Source of the DNA: Escherichia coli
Lineage (GTDB): Bacteria; Pseudomonadota; Gammaproteobacteria; Enterobacterales; Enterobacteriaceae
Direction: 5' to 3' (one strand)
Length of the DNA: 59,951 nt
Assembly (NCBI RefSeq): GCF_003334335.1
Contig: NZ_QOWQ01000031.1
Numbering within the stretch: the first letter of the stretch is position 1; each line of letters opens with the position of its first letter. A program made the position numbers and the translations under genes. The notes beneath the pieces are model-generated. The model searched no databases, had not been told where the DNA came from, and saw nothing but the letters and a program-made list of their open reading frames with translations. Of the stretch, positions 18,504 to 47,383 are shown piece by piece.

Positions 18504-21065
18504 TTACACCAGGCTCTTCAAGCGATAAATCCACTCCAGCGCCTGACGCGGGGTGAGTGAATCCGGATCAAGATTTTCCAGAGCTTCGACCGCAGGCGAA
18601 GTTTCTTCTGGTACTGACAGCAAAGACATTTGCGTACCATCCACTTGCGTAGCGGCGGCGTTCGGCGAAATGCTTTCCAGCTCACGCAGCTTTTGCCGTG
18701 CGCGCTTAATAACCTCTTTTGGCACGCCTGCCAGAGCTGCAACCGCCAGGCCGTAGCTTTTGCTCGCCGCGCCATCCTGCACGCTGTGCATAAAGGCAAT
18801 GGTGTCGCCGTGCTCCAGTGCATCGAGATGCACGTTAGCGACGCCTTCCATTTTCTCCGGTAACTGGGTCAGCTCGAAATAGTGGGTAGCAAATAACGTC
18901 AATGCCTTAATCTTATTCGCCAGATTTTCCGCGCACGCCCACGCCAGCGACAGACCATCGTAGGTGGACGTTCCACGCCCGATCTCATCCATTAACACCA
19001 GACTGTATTCGGTGGCGTTATGTAAAATATTGGCGGTTTCAGTCATCTCCACCATAAAGGTTGAGCGCCCGGACGCCAGGTCATCTGCCGCGCCTACGCG
19101 GGTAAAGATGCGATCGATAGGTCCAATCTCGACTTTTTGTGCCGGTACATAGCTGCCGATGTAGGCCATCAGCGCAATCAGTGCGGTCTGGCGCATATAG
19201 GTACTTTTACCGCCCATGTTCGGACCGGTGATGATCAACATGCGGCGCTGCGGCGACAGATTCAGCGGGTTGGCGATAAATGGCTCATTCAGTACTTGTT
19301 CAACTACCGGATGGCGACCTTCGGTAATGCGAATGCCCGGTTTATCAATGAAGGTCGGGCAGGTGTAGTTCAGGGTATAGGCCCGTTCCGCCAGGTTAAC
19401 CAGCACGTCGAGTTCCGCCAGCGCGCTCGCGCTCTGTTGCAACGCTTCCAGATGCGGCAACAGCAGGTCGAACAGCTCTTCATAAAGCTGTTTTTCCAGT
19501 GCCAGTGCTTTGCCTTTTGAGGTGAGAACTTTATCTTCGTACTCTTTTAGCTCTGGAATGATGTAGCGCTCGGCGTTTTTCAGCGTCTGGCGACGCATGT
19601 AGTTGATGGGTGCCAGATGGCTTTGCCCACGGCTGATTTGAATGTAGTAGCCGTGCACCGCATTAAAGCCAACTTTCAGCGTGTCCAGGCCGGTACGTTC
19701 ACGCTCGCGGACTTCCAGACGCTCCAGATAATCGGTCGCGCCGTCAGCCAGCGCGCGCCACTCATCCAGCTCTTCGTTATAGCCCGATGCGATAACACCA
19801 CCGTCGCGTACCAGCACCGGCGGTGTGTCGATGATTGCTCGCTCCAGCAGATCGCGCAGCTCGGCAAACTCGCCCATCTTCTCACGTAGCGCCTGTACCG
19901 GTGCACTATCGACAGTTTCTAACTGCGCACGCAGCTCCGGCAGTTGCTGGAAAGCGTGGCGCATACGGGCCAGATCGCGTGGGCGAGCAGTTCGTAAAGC
20001 CAGACGTGCCAGAATACGTTCCAGGTCGCCGACCTGACGCAGTACCGGCTGTAGCCCGGCGGTGAAATCCTGCAATGCGCCAATAGTTTGCTGGCGCTCA
20101 AGCAACACGCGGGTATCGCGCACTGGCATATGCAGCCAGCGTTTCAGCATACGGCTGCCCATCGGCGTGACGGTGCAGTCGAGCACAGAAGCCAGCGTAT
20201 TTTCCGCACCACCCGCCAGGTTCTGGGTGATTTCCAGATTACGACGCGTCGCGGCATCCATAATGATGCTGTCCTGCTCACGTTCCATGGTGATGGAACG
20301 AATATGCGGCAGAGTCGTACGTTGGGTATCTTTCGCATACTGCAACAGACAACCGGCAGCACAAAGTCCGCGCGGCGCGTTCTCGACGCCAAAACCGACC
20401 AGATCGCGGGTCCCAAATTGCAGATTCAACTGCTGGCGCGCGGTGTCGATTTCAAACTCCCACAGCGGGCGACGGCGCAGGCCGCGACGGCCTTCAATTA
20501 ACGACATTTCAGCAAAATCTTCTGCATACAGCAGTTCCGCAGGATTAGTGCGTTGCAGTTCTGCCGCCATCGTTTCGCGGTCAGCCGGTTCGCTCAGGCG
20601 AAAACGCCCGGAACTGATATCCAGCGTCGCGTAGCCGAAACCTTTGCTGTCCTGCCAGATAGCCGCCAGCAGGTTGTCCTGACGCTCCTGCAACAGGGCT
20701 TCATCGCTGATGGTGCCTGGCGTAACGATACGTACAACTTTGCGCTCAACCGGACCTTTGCTGGTCGCCGGATCGCCAATTTGTTCGCAGATGGCAACGG
20801 ACTCTCCCTGATTCACCAGTTTGGCGAGATAGTTTTCCACCGCATGGTAGGGAATCCCCGCCATCGGGATCGGCTCTCCCGCCGAAGCACCGCGTTTGGT
20901 CAGTGAAATATCCAGCAGTTGCGACGCGCGTTTTGCGTCGTCATAAAACAGTTCATAAAAATCACCCATCCGGTAAAACAGCAGGATCTCGGGATGCTGG
21001 GCTTTCAGCCTGAGATACTGCTGCATCATGGGCGTATGGGCGTCGAAATTTTCTATTGCACTCAT
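18504..21065 (-). CDS. mutS: DNA mismatch repair protein MutS
   Basis: 853-aa ORF with Walker [14 protein letters not shown]; appears intact. Confidence 0.95.
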
Positions 21066-21311
21066 GGGGTTATGTCCGGTTCCCTGATATTAAATGGGGT
21101 GTGATGGTTTTTATTTTCGTTGTAATCACATAAGGCGCACATGATACCGGAGTTAATCATTTCAGGGGAAGAAGCGAACGGCGAGTTCTTGATGCTGGTT
21201 CCGGGAAAGATGCTGTTTTGCAGCTTTTGCGTGATGCTTATGAAGCAAGTACGCAAAATTGTATCGGTTGGCTAACCCTTCTTCTTTGGAGTCATAGTGC
21301 CCTTTAAGATT

Positions 21312-21334
21312 AAGATGTAATATAAATACATCTT
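21312..21334. promoter_or_regulatory. NsrR-type operator (AAGATGTAATATAAATACATCTT) upstream of ygbA
   Basis: Inverted repeat with AAGATG/CATCTT arms, 18 bp upstream of the ygbA ATG; ygbA is a known NsrR target. Confidence 0.6.
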
Positions 21335-21351
21335 AATGAGGTGGAGGCAGC

Positions 21352-21705
21352 ATGTCCGGCAAGCGTATCTCTCGTGAAAAACTGACGATTAAAAAAATGA
21401 TCGATCTTTATCAAGCGAAATGCCCGCAGGCGTCAGCGGAGCCGGAGCATTACGAGGCGTTGTTTGTTTACGCGCAAAAGCGGCTGGATAAATGTGTGTT
21501 CGGCGAAGAGAAACCAGCCTGTAAGCAGTGTCCGGTGCACTGTTACCAGCCTGCAAAGCGTGAAGAGATGAAACAGATTATGCGTTGGGCCGGGCCGAGA
21601 ATGCTGTGGCGTCATCCGATCTTAACCGTGCGTCATCTCATCGATGACAAGCGTCCGGTGCCAGAACTGCCGGAAAAATATCGTCCGAAAAAACCTCATG
21701 AATAG
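21352..21705 (+). CDS. ygbA: NsrR-regulated protein YgbA (function unknown)
   Basis: 117-aa ORF with cysteine-rich region; conserved position between mutS and fhlA. Confidence 0.8.
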   Translation: MSGKRISREKLTIKKMIDLYQAKCPQASAEPEHYEALFVYAQKRLDKCVFGEEKPACKQCPVHCYQPAKREEMKQIMRWAGPRMLWRHPILTVRHLIDDKRPVPELPEKYRPKKPHE

Positions 21706-21708
21706 TAT

Positions 21709-21732
21709 GCCGGACAGGCAGATCTGTCCGGC
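21709..21732. terminator. Hairpin between convergent ygbA and fhlA
   Basis: GCCGGACAG-GCAGAT-CTGTCCGGC, a 9-bp perfect stem in a 36-bp intergenic gap; weak flanking T/A runs. Confidence 0.45.
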
Positions 21733-21741
21733 AATTTGCAG

Positions 21742-23820
21742 TTAAATCAATGCCGATTTATCAATTCCCAGCCGCTTCATCCGTGACAGCAGGGTCGTGC
21801 GTTTCAGCCCCAGACGTTGCGCAGCGCCTTTAGGCCCGGCAACCACGCCGTTGGTTTCTTTCAGCACGCGCACAATCAACTGATATTCATCTTCGCCCTC
21901 CAGGGCGACAACCGTTGCGGCAGGCGGCGTTTCAGGTTCCGGTAAAACAATATCTGGCAATGACAGCTGCAGCACGTTACCGCGTGTTAGCAATACCGCG
22001 CGCTCAATGACGTTTTCCAGTTCGCGTACGTTACCCGGCCACTCCATGTTGCTCAAGGTGCGCAGCGTCTCGGCAGGAATGCTGTCGATATTGCGCCCCA
22101 GACGACGGGCAATTTTGAAGGTAAAGGCTTTCGCCAGCAGCGGAATATCTTCCGGACGCTCGCGTAGTGGCGGCAGGTGAATCGGGAATACGTTCAGGCG
22201 GTAATAGAGATCGCTACGGAACTCACGGTCGGCGACCATTTTTTTCAGATCGCGGTTAGTCGCGGCGATTAGACGCACGTCCGTCTGAATGATTTTGTTG
22301 CTGCCGAGACGTTCAAACTCCTGTTCCTGCAATACACGCAGCAACTTCGGCTGTAACTCCAGTGGCATATCGCCCACTTCGTCGAGGAACAGGGAGCTTT
22401 TATCCGCCAGTTCAAAACGACCGATACGCTGGGCGCTGGCACCGGTAAAAGCCCCACGCTCATGACCAAACAGATCGCTTTCCAGCAATCCGGCAGGCAT
22501 CGCCGCGCAGTTCATTTTGACCATGCGGCGATTATTACGCCCACTGAGATTATGGATCGCACGGGCAATCAGCTCTTTACCCGTGCCAGTTTCACCGAGG
22601 ATCAGCACGGTACTGTCACTTTGCGCCACCATTTCAACTTGTTTAAGCACGCTGTACATGGCTTCGCTGCGGCCAATAATCTCGCCAAATTCACTATCAA
22701 CATTGTTGAGCTGCTCGGTCAGGGCGAGGTTTTCATCAACCAGCCGTTCTTTCAGACGATGGATTTCCTGATAGGCGAGGGCGTTATCGACAGCGATTGC
22801 CACACGTTCGGCAATCTGGCGCAGTAAATTCAGATTGGTAGTGGTAAACACTTTCTCTTCGCATTGCGCCAGTTTCAGCACGCCCAGCATGGTGTCGCCA
22901 GACATCAGCGGTAACAGGCACAAGGTTTGAATCTGGTTGCCCCAGGTGTCGAACAACATGCGTTCATAGGGGGCTAAATCGTCCCGCTCGTGGAGATTGA
23001 TCAGCAGCATCTCTTTACTTTTGAACACGCGTTCGGTGAGGGTTCCGGCTTCATCGACTTCGCTCTGTTCGTGGGCGGGATGCTGTTTATCAAGATAGTG
23101 AGTGGAGTAGATGTTGAGTTTGTTTTTACGGTGGCTGCGTAAGACGATACTGATATCGTCAATGTCGAAATAGTAATGGATTTCTTTGGCGACTTCGCTG
23201 ACCAGTTCGTCCATATCCAGGCGGGAAAGCACCGCGTTGGTGATGGCGACCAGGATGCGGAAGTTATCGCGTTCCCGGCATAACAACTCATAGTCGACAT
23301 TGTTAACGACGCGGCTCTGGATTTGTTCGGTGACGACAGAAACGATCTGCGTAAATGTTTGCAGACGATTGAACTCTTTTTCGCTCCAGGGGCGATCGTC
23401 ATAACGAATAAATTCACAGCCACCAAAAATATGCCCTTCCGCCGCCAGTGGCATCAGGCAATAGTGACCAAATTTTGGGTATAGCCCACCTGCGTCCAGC
23501 TGCGGCCAGGTTTCACAAAATTCTTCGTAACTGCAATGCAGCGTATCAGGGCGCGACAAAATGCTGCGTACCGGACCGTGTGCCAGAACAGTTTCGTCTT
23601 CATATTTAATGGGGGTGTCTTTTTCACGCGACGCGTAATAAGACGCACGTTGAGTCTGCGCTTGCCACAACACAATAGCCGCGTTGTCGGCGAGCGCAGA
23701 ACGCTTTACCAGTTGCGAAAGAGCCTCACACAGCGAGGCCAGATCGGGCTGCTGCAATAGTGTCCGAGTGATGTCGAACAACCCTTGTTGTCCGAGATCA
23801 CTCATCGGTGTATATGACAT
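21742..23820 (-). CDS. fhlA: Formate hydrogenlyase transcriptional activator (sigma54-dependent)
   Basis: Start trimmed to MSYTPMSDLG (692 aa). GAF domains, AAA+ GETGTGKE and GAFTGA motifs, C-terminal HTH. Confidence 0.9.
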   Translation of the reverse strand: MSYTPMSDLGQQGLFDITRTLLQQPDLASLCEALSQLVKRSALADNAAIVLWQAQTQRASYYASREKDTPIKYEDETVLAHGPVRSILSRPDTLHCSYEEFCETWPQLDAGGLYPKFGHYCLMPLAAEGHIFGGCEFIRYDDRPWSEKEFNRLQTFTQIVSVVTEQIQSRVVNNVDYELLCRERDNFRILVAITNAVLSRLDMDELVSEVAKEIHYYFDIDDISIVLRSHRKNKLNIYSTHYLDKQHPAHEQSEVDEAGTLTERVFKSKEMLLINLHERDDLAPYERMLFDTWGNQIQTLCLLPLMSGDTMLGVLKLAQCEEKVFTTTNLNLLRQIAERVAIAVDNALAYQEIHRLKERLVDENLALTEQLNNVDSEFGEIIGRSEAMYSVLKQVEMVAQSDSTVLILGETGTGKELIARAIHNLSGRNNRRMVKMNCAAMPAGLLESDLFGHERGAFTGASAQRIGRFELADKSSLFLDEVGDMPLELQPKLLRVLQEQEFERLGSNKIIQTDVRLIAATNRDLKKMVADREFRSDLYYRLNVFPIHLPPLRERPEDIPLLAKAFTFKIARRLGRNIDSIPAETLRTLSNMEWPGNVRELENVIERAVLLTRGNVLQLSLPDIVLPEPETPPAATVVALEGEDEYQLIVRVLKETNGVVAGPKGAAQRLGLKRTTLLSRMKRLGIDKSALI

Positions 23821-27557: not shown

Positions 27558-27670
27558 GTGTTGATTATCCCTGCGGTGAATAATGTCGATGATGTCGAAA
27601 TGACACGTCGACACGGCGACGAAATTCATCTTTAGCTTAAAAATCTCTTTAATAACAATAAATTAAAAGT

Positions 27671-28184: not shown

Positions 28185-28308
28185 GCTGAGGCTTTGCCCG
28201 TTTTGCAGGCGTTACGCCTGTTTGGGGATGGGCGTGTCGATGAGTGTCGAAAATGACATTTCATCGGCATGTTTTCGTCAAAAATGACAATCACCTGAGG
28301 AATGCCTG

Positions 28309-43112: not shown

Positions 43113-44246
43113 CTACATCGGCAATGTTTTCAACAATCCAAATGCCTCTTTCATCCGATCCTCACTGACCACAAAGGCGCGAAGCTGGTCAGCATCGTCA
43201 ACGCCGCGCGCCACCATTCCCTGGCGTTCGGTATTAATTTGCCAGCGTAAATCCTGACGCTGGGTTTCGCCTGCCAGATGCAGCGGTAATTCCGGCGTTT
43301 TGATTTTCACCAGCATCGCCGGGAGTTTCAGCGGCGTGTTATTGCCGAGAAGATTTTTTGCCAGCACCATCGCGCTAAGTTGAATCGGCTGGAGGAACGG
43401 CAATACCTGACCGTTAATTTCCGCGCAATCGCCCAGCGCGTAAATATCGGTATTACTGGTTTGCAGATAACTATCGACGCAAACGCCGCGATTAATCGTC
43501 AGCCCGGCGCGTCGTGCCAGGGCGGTTTCCGGGCGCAGTCCGGTGGCGGCAATTACCGCATCCACTTCGATGCTACGCTGGCGGTCCAGCGTTGCCAGAA
43601 TGCCAGAATCCGTTTTTTCCAGCCCCTGCAACTGAGATTTCAACAGCAGATGAACACCCATCTCCGTCAACCGATGCTGCAAGCGGCTGCTTACTTCCGG
43701 TGGCATTAACGACGCCAGAATACTGGCAGCGTTGTCGATTAGCGTGACCGCTTTGCCTGCACGACAAAAATCCATCGCCAGTTCGCTACCAATCAAACCA
43801 CCGCCAACAATCAACACGCGTCGGGCATCCCGCAGTTGCGTTTCACAGGCGCGATACTCTTGCTGACTATTTAACGTCAGCATTAACTCACGCCCAGGCA
43901 CAGGCGGGACAAAGGCGCTGGCACCGGTTGCCAGCACTAACTTGTCGTATTGCCACTGATTATTCTGGCTTTTCACCACATGGGCTTCGGCATCGATATC
44001 CGTCACCCAGGTGTGCGGAAACAGGCGCAGATTAAACTGCTCGGCAAATTCACCCGCCGTCTGGCGGGTAAGGTCGTCGGCACGTTGCCCCTGACTGATA
44101 ACATGGCTGAGGTCAGGTTTGTTGTACTCATCTATGCTGTCGGCGGCAATCAAGGTTAATGGAATAGTGGCGTCCTGTTTGCGAATATTTTTCACCAGTT
44201 GTCGGGCGGCGAAGCCCGAACCAATGATCACAATGCCGTTGCTCAT
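43113..44246 (-). CDS. norW: NADH:flavorubredoxin oxidoreductase
   Basis: 377-aa ORF with FAD/NAD(P)-binding GxGxxG motifs. Confidence 0.9.
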
Positions 44247-45682
44247 TTTGCCTCCGATGCCAGTTCGTCAAAGACGTCTTTGCCGAGGGAGCATTCCGGG
44301 CACAGGAAGTTATCCGGGACTTCACTCCACGGCGTTCCTGGTGCAACGTCCTGCATTGGCTCGCCTTTTGCCGGATCGTAAATCCACCGGCAGACGCTGC
44401 ACTGCATCCGTGGGCCGAGGTCAGCCGTCGTGGCGGCAGAGGTTTCTTCTTTAACTACCGTATTCACCGTGCTCTGCGGCAGCGGCGCGAGCGCCCACTG
44501 ACGGGCGATTTCGCGACCGTGTTCACGGCATAACTCCAGAGCGTCCTGGTCTGGTCGCCATTTGGCTTTCAGGCTGAGCGACATTTCGAAACCCGCATCC
44601 TGCAGGCGCGTGGAAAGACGATCCACCGCACCGCCGCTCCAGCCGTGAGAGCCGAAAGCACTGGCGCGTTTGTTACGGAAGCGTAAACCAGTCATCTCCT
44701 CCACCAGCCCGGCGATTTTCGGCATCATCACGTTATTCATCGTCGAAGTGCCGACCAGCACGCCTTTTGAGCGGAAGACATTGGTCAGGATTTCGTTTTT
44801 ATCGCTTCGGGCGACGTTGAAAATTTTCACCGCCACGCGTGGGTCGGTTTCCGCAATCCCCTGGGCGATAGCGTCAGCCATCATGCGGGTGTTATTCGAC
44901 ATGGTGTCGTAGAAAATGGTGATTCTGTCTTCCTGATAATCAGCCGCCCATTTCAGGTACAGCTCGACAATTTGCGTCGGGTTATCGCGCCAGACCACGC
45001 CGTGGGAGGTCGCTATCATATCGACTGATAAGTTAAAGCCCAGGATCTCGGTAATTTTCGGCGTTACCAGGCGGCTGAACGGCGTCAGGATATTGGCGTA
45101 GTAACGCTGGCACTGCTCGAAAAGCTCCGTCTGATCCACTTCATCGTTGAACAGATGCTCGTCACAGTAGTGCTGACCGAAAGCATCGTTACTGAACAGC
45201 ACCGCGTCGCCTGTCAGGTAAGTCATCATGCTGTCCGGCCAGTGCAGCATTGGTGTTTCGACAAAAATGAGCTGTTTGCCGTTGCCGATATCCAGCGTGT
45301 CGCCAGTTTTCACCACATTAAAATTCCACTCCGGATGATGGTGATGACCATTTATCGAGTCGATAGCGTTGGCAGTACAGTAGATCGGCGTATCGGGAAT
45401 TTGTGCCATCAGTTCGGTCAGCGCCCCAGCGTGGTCCTCTTCTGCATGGTTAATCACGATGTAATCGATATCCGCCAGATCGATTTCATTACGCAGGTTC
45501 TGCACAAATTCGCGGCTGAATTTATGGTCGACGGTGTCGATCAGCACGTTTTTTTCTTCGCGGATGAGGTAGCTATTGTAGCTGCTGCCGCGCAGCGTTT
45601 TATATTCCGTGCCGTGAAAATCACGCACTTCCCAGTCACGTTGACCAACCCAATGAATGTTATTTTTCACCACAATAGACAT
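44243..45682 (-). CDS. norV: Anaerobic nitric oxide reductase flavorubredoxin
   Basis: 479-aa ORF: metallo-beta-lactamase-like and flavodoxin domains plus C-terminal rubredoxin (CSVC...CPEC). Confidence 0.92.
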
Positions 45683-45729
45683 AGCAACCTCAATTTATTC
45701 AGCGTGTTCTAAAAAGATGTCTTGCTAAT

Positions 45730-45745
45730 TGCAGATTGCGTGCCA
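45730..45745 (-). promoter_or_regulatory. Sigma54 -24/-12 promoter for norVW
   Basis: Minus strand reads TGGCACGCAATCTGCA, about 48 bp upstream of the norV start. Confidence 0.65.
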
Positions 45746-45800
45746 GTTTTTTATCTGATTGTTTTTACTCTATAAATAAAATTATGCCCATTAATGAGTA

Positions 45801-45856
45801 GTCAAAATGACTATCAATCAAATGGTCGATATGACAATATCTATAGTCAAATTGAC
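45801..45856. promoter_or_regulatory. Three NorR enhancer boxes (GT-N7-AC)
   Basis: GTCAAAATGAC (45801-45811), GTCGATATGAC (45825-45835), GTCAAATTGAC (45846-45856), between the divergent norR and norV starts. Confidence 0.7.
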
Positions 45857-45868
45857 AGTGAGGCAAAG

Positions 45869-47383
45869 ATGAGTTTTTCCGTTGATGTGCTGGCGAATAT
45901 CGCCATCGAATTGCAGCGTGGGATTGGTCACCAGGATCGTTTTCAGCGCCTGATCACCACGCTACGTCAGGTGCTGGAGTGCGATGCGTCTGCGTTGCTA
46001 CGTTACGATTCGCGGCAGTTTATTCCGCTTGCCATCGACGGTCTGGCAAAGGATGTACTCGGTAGACGCTTTGCGCTGGAAGGGCATCCACGGCTGGAAG
46101 CGATTGCCCGCGCCGGGGATGTGGTGCGCTTTCCCGCAGACAGCGAATTGCCCGATCCCTATGACGGTTTGATTCCTGGGCAGGAGAGTCTGAAGGTTCA
46201 CGCCTGCGTTGGTCTGCCATTGTTTGCCGGGCAAAACCTGATCGGCGCACTGACGCTCGACGGGATGCAGCCCGATCAGTTCGATGTTTTCAGCGACGAA
46301 GAGCTACGGCTGATTGCTGCGCTGGCGGCGGGAGCGTTAAGCAATGCGTTGCTGATTGAACAACTGGAAAGCCAGAATATGCTGCCAGGCGATGCCACGC
46401 CGTTTGAAGCGGTGAAACAGACGCAGATGATTGGCTTGTCCCCTGGCATGACGCAACTGAAAAAAGAGATTGAGATTGTGGCGGCGTCCGATCTCAACGT
46501 CCTGATCAGCGGTGAGACTGGAACCGGTAAGGAGCTGGTGGCGAAAGCGATTCATGAAGCCTCGCCACGGGCGGTGAATCCGCTGGTCTATCTCAACTGT
46601 GCTGCACTGCCGGAAAGTGTGGCGGAAAGTGAGTTGTTCGGGCATGTGAAAGGAGCGTTTACTGGCGCTATCAGTAATCGCAGCGGGAAGTTTGAAATGG
46701 CGGATAACGGCACGCTGTTTCTGGATGAGATCGGCGAGTTGTCGTTGGCATTGCAGGCCAAGCTGCTGAGGGTGTTGCAGTATGGCGATATTCAGCGCGT
46801 TGGCGATGACCGTTGTTTGCGGGTCGATGTGCGCGTGCTGGCGGCGACTAACCGCGATTTACGCGAAGAGGTGCTGGCAGGGCGATTCCGCGCCGATTTG
46901 TTTCATCGCCTGAGCGTGTTTCCACTTTCGGTGCCGCCGCTGCGTGAGCGGGGCGATGATGTCATTCTGCTGGCGGGGTATTTCTGCGAGCAGTGTCGTT
47001 TGCGGCAGGGGCTCTCCCGCGTGGTATTAAGTGCCGGAGCGCGAAATTTACTGCAACACTACAGTTTTCCGGGAAACGTGCGCGAACTGGAACATGCTAT
47101 TCATCGGGCGGTAGTTCTGGCGAGAGCCACCCGCAGCGGCGATGAAGTGATTCTTGAGGCGCAACATTTTGCTTTTCCTGAGGTGACGTTGCCGACGCCA
47201 GAAGTGGCGGCGGTGCCCGTTGTTAAGCAAAACCTGCGTGAAGCGACAGAAGCGTTCCAGCGTGAAACTATTCGTCAGGCACTGGCACAAAATCATCACA
47301 ACTGGGCTGCCTGCGCGCGGATGCTGGAAACCGACGTCGCCAACCTGCATCGGCTGGCGAAACGTCTGGGATTGAAGGATTAA
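45869..47383 (+). CDS. norR: Nitric-oxide-responsive sigma54-dependent activator NorR
   Basis: Start trimmed to [12 protein letters not shown] (504 aa); GAF domain, AAA+ GETGTGKE and GAFTGA motifs, C-terminal HTH. Confidence 0.9.

Follow-up and report, generated by a model that had tools for sequence, protein, structure and literature searches.

The palindrome that lies directly upstream of ygbA in Escherichia coli is very probably the operator by which the repressor NsrR keeps this gene off until nitric oxide appears, and bound NsrR would do so by occluding RNA polymerase. We analysed the site within a stretch of 59,951 nucleotides (contig NZ_QOWQ01000031.1; hereafter the window), which is chromosomal DNA of E. 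coli K-12. That an NsrR site precedes ygbA was already known, and the finding is confirmed as correct but ordinary. The only additions made here are the evidence that the left half-site houses a -10 element, the extent to which the site is conserved across species, and the structure of the alleles found in E. coli.

The NsrR box upstream of ygbA

The box is situated near the downstream end of the 286-bp spacer (21066-21351) that makes up the whole interval between mutS (18504-21065, minus strand, RefSeq annotation) and the regulated gene ygbA (21352-21705, plus strand), an ORF, likewise annotated by RefSeq, for a 117-aa protein that belongs to the YgbA_NO family (Pfam PF11756). The sequence AAGATGTAATATAAATACATCTT occupies 21312-21334 on the plus strand, so that its 3' end falls 17 nt before the ygbA ATG (21352). 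It occurs once in the window, even when three mismatches are allowed, and a search of the window with the 23-nt NsrR pattern returned the box as the sole match with zero mismatches. The position given for this element in a preliminary description is therefore exact, as a reading of the sequence confirms. The same description called it an 11-1-11 inverted repeat matching the NsrR box. The match to the 11-1-11 model of NsrR is sound, with AAGATGTAATA-T-AAATACATCTT spanning 21312-21334, and is supported by its matrix rank, by shuffled sequences, by conservation and by the published ygbA site (PMC5320621). However, the arms in this reading are complementary at nine of 11 positions and not at all 11. 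A perfect inverted repeat is present in the K-12 allele at 21309-21337, where 11-nt arms ATTAAGATGTA (21309-21319) and TACATCTTAAT (21327-21337) flank a 7-nt gap; of 2000 sequences obtained by dinucleotide shuffling of the spacer, only four contained a perfect arm of at least 11 nt.

To score candidate sites, we built a palindromic weight matrix on 24 NsrR sites reported in strain CFT073 (PMC5320621 Table 4), with ygbA and hycB left out. The ygbA box reaches 23.5 bits and ranks first among 59,929 positions in the window, 9 bits above the next match (hycB, 14.6 bits), and only about four training sites exceed it when scored by leave-one-out. Not one of 2000 dinucleotide shuffles of the spacer contained a site that reached 23.5 bits, their maxima averaging 5.2 and peaking at 22.2. 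A chance origin of the box is excluded. The right half-site (21324-21334; AAGATGTATTT on the minus strand) is the arm nearer to the NsrR consensus, and with 15.3 bits it outscores every other 11-nt half-site candidate in the window. The left half-site departs from the consensus at positions 7, 9 and 11, with T, A and A in place of C, T and T. In architecture and core bases, the box is the same as the NsrR operators of ytfE, hmp and hcp, which also are 11-1-11 elements with a consensus of about AAGATGCATTT-N-AAATGCATCTT. Leave-one-out scores for these operators are 31.6 bits (ytfE), 26.7 bits (hcp) and 19.2 bits (hmp), and the score for ygbA thus lies within their upper range.

A scan of one genome per species across the Enterobacterales yielded 80 loci with ygbA relatives, which represent Escherichia, Citrobacter, Salmonella, Klebsiella, Raoultella, Enterobacter, Kluyvera, Lelliottia, Leclercia, Pluralibacter, Phytobacter, Rahnella, Hafnia and others. 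Within the 300 nt upstream of ygbA, 79 of the 80 species have their best match to the matrix 12-22 nt before the ATG; in Hafnia this distance is 41 nt. Most of these matches score 15-27 bits, and 79 of 80 reach at least 11 bits; the one weak site scores 4.2 bits. When 25 genera are aligned, the upstream flanks are unalignable (42% mean column identity) and the box is the sole conserved non-coding block upstream of ygbA. Nine of its columns are invariant (A21313, G21317, T21318, A21319, A21322, T21323, T21327, T21333 and T21334) and four more are nearly so (A21312, A21326, C21329 and A21330). Judged by these comparisons, the NsrR box is a phylogenetic footprint in 80 species.

Published regulation of ygbA by NsrR

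For the sequence match, its statistics, its conservation and its geometry relative to the ATG we rely on the present analysis, and for NsrR-dependent expression and binding in vivo we rely on the literature. NsrR is an iron-sulfur, nitric oxide-sensitive repressor that recognises an 11-1-11 repeat (PMC5320621). Its motif, gATGyAT-N5-ATrCATc, was derived by Rodionov et al. 2005 (PMC1274295), and a personal communication in that paper describes YjeB/NsrR as a nitric oxide-sensitive protein that represses hmp, ytfE and ygbA. For CFT073, Mehta et al. 2015 (PMC5320621) list an 11-1-11 site in front of ygbA. The preliminary description regarded ygbA as an NsrR-repressed gene, and published data agree: as cited in PMC5320621, ygbA was found to be regulated by NsrR in E. 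coli by Bodenmiller & Spiro 2006 and to be bound by NsrR in a K-12 ChIP-chip study by Partridge 2009, and ygbA mRNA in Salmonella is elevated 31.8-fold when nsrR is mutated (Gilberthorpe et al. 2007, PMC2884951). The check that had been proposed, namely the measurement of ygbA expression in an nsrR mutant, has thus already been carried out in this earlier work. In CFT073, ygbA is among the most-induced genes in anaerobic nitrate-grown cultures; ChIP-seq in this strain gave no NsrR peak at ygbA, which the authors judged to be a probable false negative (PMC5320621). In the literature consulted, where two of the primary papers are represented through later citation, we came across neither direct in vitro binding nor a footprint for the ygbA box.

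It is conceivable that the main user of the palindrome is some other regulator, such as NarL/NarP, FNR or IscR, an Rrf2 protein related to NsrR, and that the likeness to an NsrR site is secondary, although we consider this very unlikely. The heptamer recognised by NarL in the nitrate/nitrite response mediated by NarL/NarP has the consensus TACYYMT. One segment of the box, TACATCT at 21327-21333, is a single base away from this consensus, but a reading of the sequence reveals that the heptamer-like arms are wrongly oriented and are placed 7 nt apart, rather than in a 7-2-7 arrangement. The induction of ygbA in anaerobic nitrate-grown cultures also could be attributed to such a regulator, yet published work ascribes the induction of the NsrR regulon by nitrate to nitric oxide that is made from nitrite (PMC5320621). 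Moreover, the conserved columns fit the NsrR matrix across all 23 positions of the box. Deletion of nsrR alone is sufficient for the 31.8-fold rise seen in Salmonella (PMC2884951), and the mutant data thus leave no need for another regulator at ygbA.

A predicted promoter within the operator

The left half-site of the box appears to contain more than a binding site for NsrR. In all 77 species for which the core of the box was located, the sequence TAnnAT is present, and in 73 of these it takes the form TATTAT, TAATAT, TAGAAT or TAAAAT. The central base of the box (position 12) is T in 67 of 67 distinct boxes, even though it carries only 0.02 bits in the NsrR matrix, and 66 of 67 have A at position 11, where NsrR sites favour T (0.79). 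Because positions 11 and 12 have no explanation in NsrR recognition, and because they form TAnnAT together with T7 and A8, we infer that a sigma-70 -10 hexamer, TAATAT in the window, is built into the left half-site at 21318-21323 on the plus strand.

The remainder of the promoter is less distinct. A possible weak -35 element, TAGTGC (21295-21300, plus strand), is found 17 nt upstream of the -10 and agrees with TTGACA at two of six positions. Corresponding hexamers in other genera match at two to four positions, as with CTGAAA (4/6) in the Enterobacter group, and the spacing is 17 nt in 67 of 77 species and 16 or 18 nt in the remainder. A scan of 20950-21800 for consensus sigma-70 promoters returned no promoter, because the -35 of ygbA is poor, and as a result it is conservation from which the ygbA promoter is assigned. 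From the position of the -10, transcription is predicted to start at the A 7 nt after it (21330, plus strand), which would give a 22-nt leader with GGAGG at 21343-21347 as its ribosome-binding site. In 70 of the 77 species, 26-31 nt separate the -10 from the ATG. The earlier placement of the box over the likely ygbA promoter is plausible: the box does overlap the only plausible -10, a candidate marked by the conserved TAnnAT, but the -35 is weak and the consensus scan was negative.

An NsrR dimer would be seated on two 11-bp half-sites (21312-21322 and 21324-21334), of which, if these assignments are correct, the left would contain the -10 (21318-21323) and the right would cover the predicted start near A21330. 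Since both elements would lie under the dimer, we infer that bound NsrR would exclude RNA polymerase. Nitric oxide would then damage the cluster of NsrR, the protein would leave the DNA, and ygbA would be transcribed with a leader of approximately 22 nt.

The symmetry of the site could also be thought to reflect a hairpin, whether a cruciform in the DNA or a fold in the RNA of an extended ygbA leader, instead of a site for protein binding. RNA of the K-12 allele would indeed form an 11-bp stem, and the segment 21300-21360 has a minimum free energy of -15.8 kcal/mol (z = -2.7 relative to shuffles). However, the symmetry mates do not covary among 67 distinct orthologous boxes, in which changes on one side go uncompensated: positions 4 and 20 are complementary in 20 of the 67 boxes, and positions 5 and 19 in 41. 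The stem is broken at positions 4 and 20 in natural alleles of E. coli, and, if transcription starts near 21330, the right arm alone would be transcribed. A hairpin is therefore an extremely improbable explanation. A structured RNA element or riboswitch in the leader was likewise considered and rejected, given that compensatory changes are lacking and that an Rfam search of 20900-21800 gave no match at an E-value of 1 or below.

Scarcely any probability attaches to the proposal that the conserved block is a core promoter alone (-10 and start) with incidental NsrR-like symmetry: four of the nine invariant columns do belong to the TAnnAT pattern, but a promoter needs none of AA at 21312-21313, TT at 21333-21334, G21317, T21327 and C21329, which are invariant or nearly so, the right half-site by itself is the top NsrR half-site in 60 kb, and nsrR-dependent expression has been published (PMC2884951, and work cited in PMC5320621).

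Neighbourhood, protein product and alleles of ygbA

Downstream of ygbA and convergent with it is fhlA (21742-23820, minus strand), beyond which RefSeq annotates, in order, hyp, hyc, asc, hydN-hypF, norVW and norR. Across species this arrangement is not stable. Only 23 of 80 species have mutS within 1.5 kb upstream of ygbA, and 38 of 80 have fhlA within 1.5 kb downstream. The NsrR box travels with ygbA and not with its neighbours. The gap between fhlA and mutS is a known hotspot for the gain and loss of islands, for example sitABCD and SPI-1 (PMC7232297), and the neighbour counts agree with this report. The preliminary description had placed ygbA between two loci relevant to nitrosative stress, which has little meaning, as mutS is not such a locus, adjoins ygbA in only 23 of the 80 species, and borders a known island hotspot.

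Other elements related to nitric oxide are nevertheless present in the window. The genes norW and norV, with the divergent norR (43113-47383), lie about 22 kb from ygbA and constitute the second dedicated nitric oxide-sensing system of E. coli; these, rather than mutS, are the true nitric oxide-related neighbours of ygbA in the window. In the hycA-hycB spacer, the second-best match in the window (AAATGACATTTCATCGGCATGTT, 28251-28273) has exactly the sequence of the NsrR site that ChIP-seq detected upstream of hycB in CFT073, and the hypA-hycA spacer carries a single good NsrR half-site (AAGATGAATTT, 27622-27632, minus strand, 12.6 bits). Both hycB and hypA are published ChIP targets of NsrR, the latter in K-12 as well as in CFT073 (PMC5320621). 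Their sites belong to the same motif family as the ygbA box, but the matches are much weaker (14.6 bits for hycB and one good half-site for hypA), and published work gives a less clear picture of their regulatory effect. The remark about a nitrosative-stress neighbourhood is thus largely incidental, although the window does hold the NsrR targets hycB and hypA as well as norR-norVW.

Several further features were observed in the DNA that flanks ygbA. The mutS-proximal part of the spacer (21098-21195) is identical across nine Escherichia sequences, including those of E. albertii and E. whittamii, except at columns 21124 and 21173, and probably comprises the mutS promoter and leader on the minus strand; positions 21215-21310 vary among the same nine sequences. 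The spacer also contains a 44-aa ORF (21141-21275, plus strand) that is annotated in many E. coli genomes as the RefSeq 'hypothetical protein' WP_000611932.1. Only four of the 80 species, all of them Escherichia, have this ORF, its product is 63-93% identical compared with 96-99% for the flanking MutS and YgbA, and a 1-nt indel near 21261 is found in EPEC E2348/69 and in E. albertii, with the EPEC record carrying no annotation for it. On the grounds of its restriction to Escherichia, its low identity and the indel, we judged that it is probably spurious as an upstream gene. In the 36-bp gap between the convergent ygbA and fhlA genes, a hairpin, GCCGGACAG-gcagat-CTGTCCGGC (21709-21732), is likely to be a terminator common to both; a terminator scan made no call at this position, probably because the T-run that follows the hairpin is short. 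Finally, an AT-rich block, AAATGAAAATAATTCTTATTT, is shared by two Salmonella loci (L023 and L026) and two Citrobacter loci (L012 and L022) at about 80-110 nt upstream of ygbA. The block precedes the NsrR box in genera that have sitABCD rather than mutS next to ygbA, and it may resemble a Fur/MntR-type box for the divergent sit operon.

The product of the regulated gene aligns with Pfam PF11756 (YgbA_NO) at E = 1.4e-40, with residues 4-106 covering positions 1-104 of the 106 in the model. Four cysteines, C48, C57, C60 and C64 (CX8CX2CX3C), are invariant in 79 YgbA orthologues, which suggests that they may form a metal or iron-sulfur site. A search of the PDB for relatives of YgbA with a solved structure produced only matches at the level of chance (best E-value 0.32). 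Expression of YgbA inside macrophages is reportedly very high.

Within E. coli, the 761-nt stretch around the NsrR box has 100% identity to MG1655 and is found in 5420 of 5426 complete genomes. The last 56 nt before ygbA (21296-21351) are unusually polymorphic. Among 5382 genomes with a match to this segment, 2106 have an identity of at least 99%, 437 of 95-99% and 398 of 90-95%, and 2442 are only 80-90% identical; this last class amounts to 45% of complete E. coli genomes. In nine Escherichia sequences, the box itself varies only at positions 4 (21315, A/T), 17 (21328, A/G) and 20 (21331, T/C), which occur in at least five combinations and are of low information content in the NsrR matrix (0.45, 0.66 and 0.45 bits, respectively). 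Other E. coli alleles break the perfect repeat at positions 4 and 20. This pattern of variation indicates that palindromic perfection is particular to the K-12 allele, and that the conserved entity is the motif. The entry for CFT073 (AAGGTGCATTTATATTACAACTT; Mehta et al. 2015, PMC5320621 Table 4) provides an example, as it is the reverse complement of an allele, AAGTTGTAATATAAATGCACCTT, that differs from the box in the window solely at positions 4, 17 and 20, with T4, G17 and C20 in CFT073 against A4, A17 and T20 in K-12. Locus, gene and 23-bp element are the same, and, aside from the more palindromic character of the K-12 allele in the window, nothing of substance differs between them.

By its NsrR site, ygbA is marked as a member of the core nitric oxide stress regulon, a membership that was already established, and the finding therefore has little value beyond correct annotation. 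One could speculate that the fusion of operator and promoter, combined with diverged alleles, sets lineage-specific NsrR occupancy or basal expression of ygbA, although on balance we think it unlikely. If true, such tuning by alleles would account for the detection of NsrR at ygbA by ChIP in K-12 but not in CFT073.
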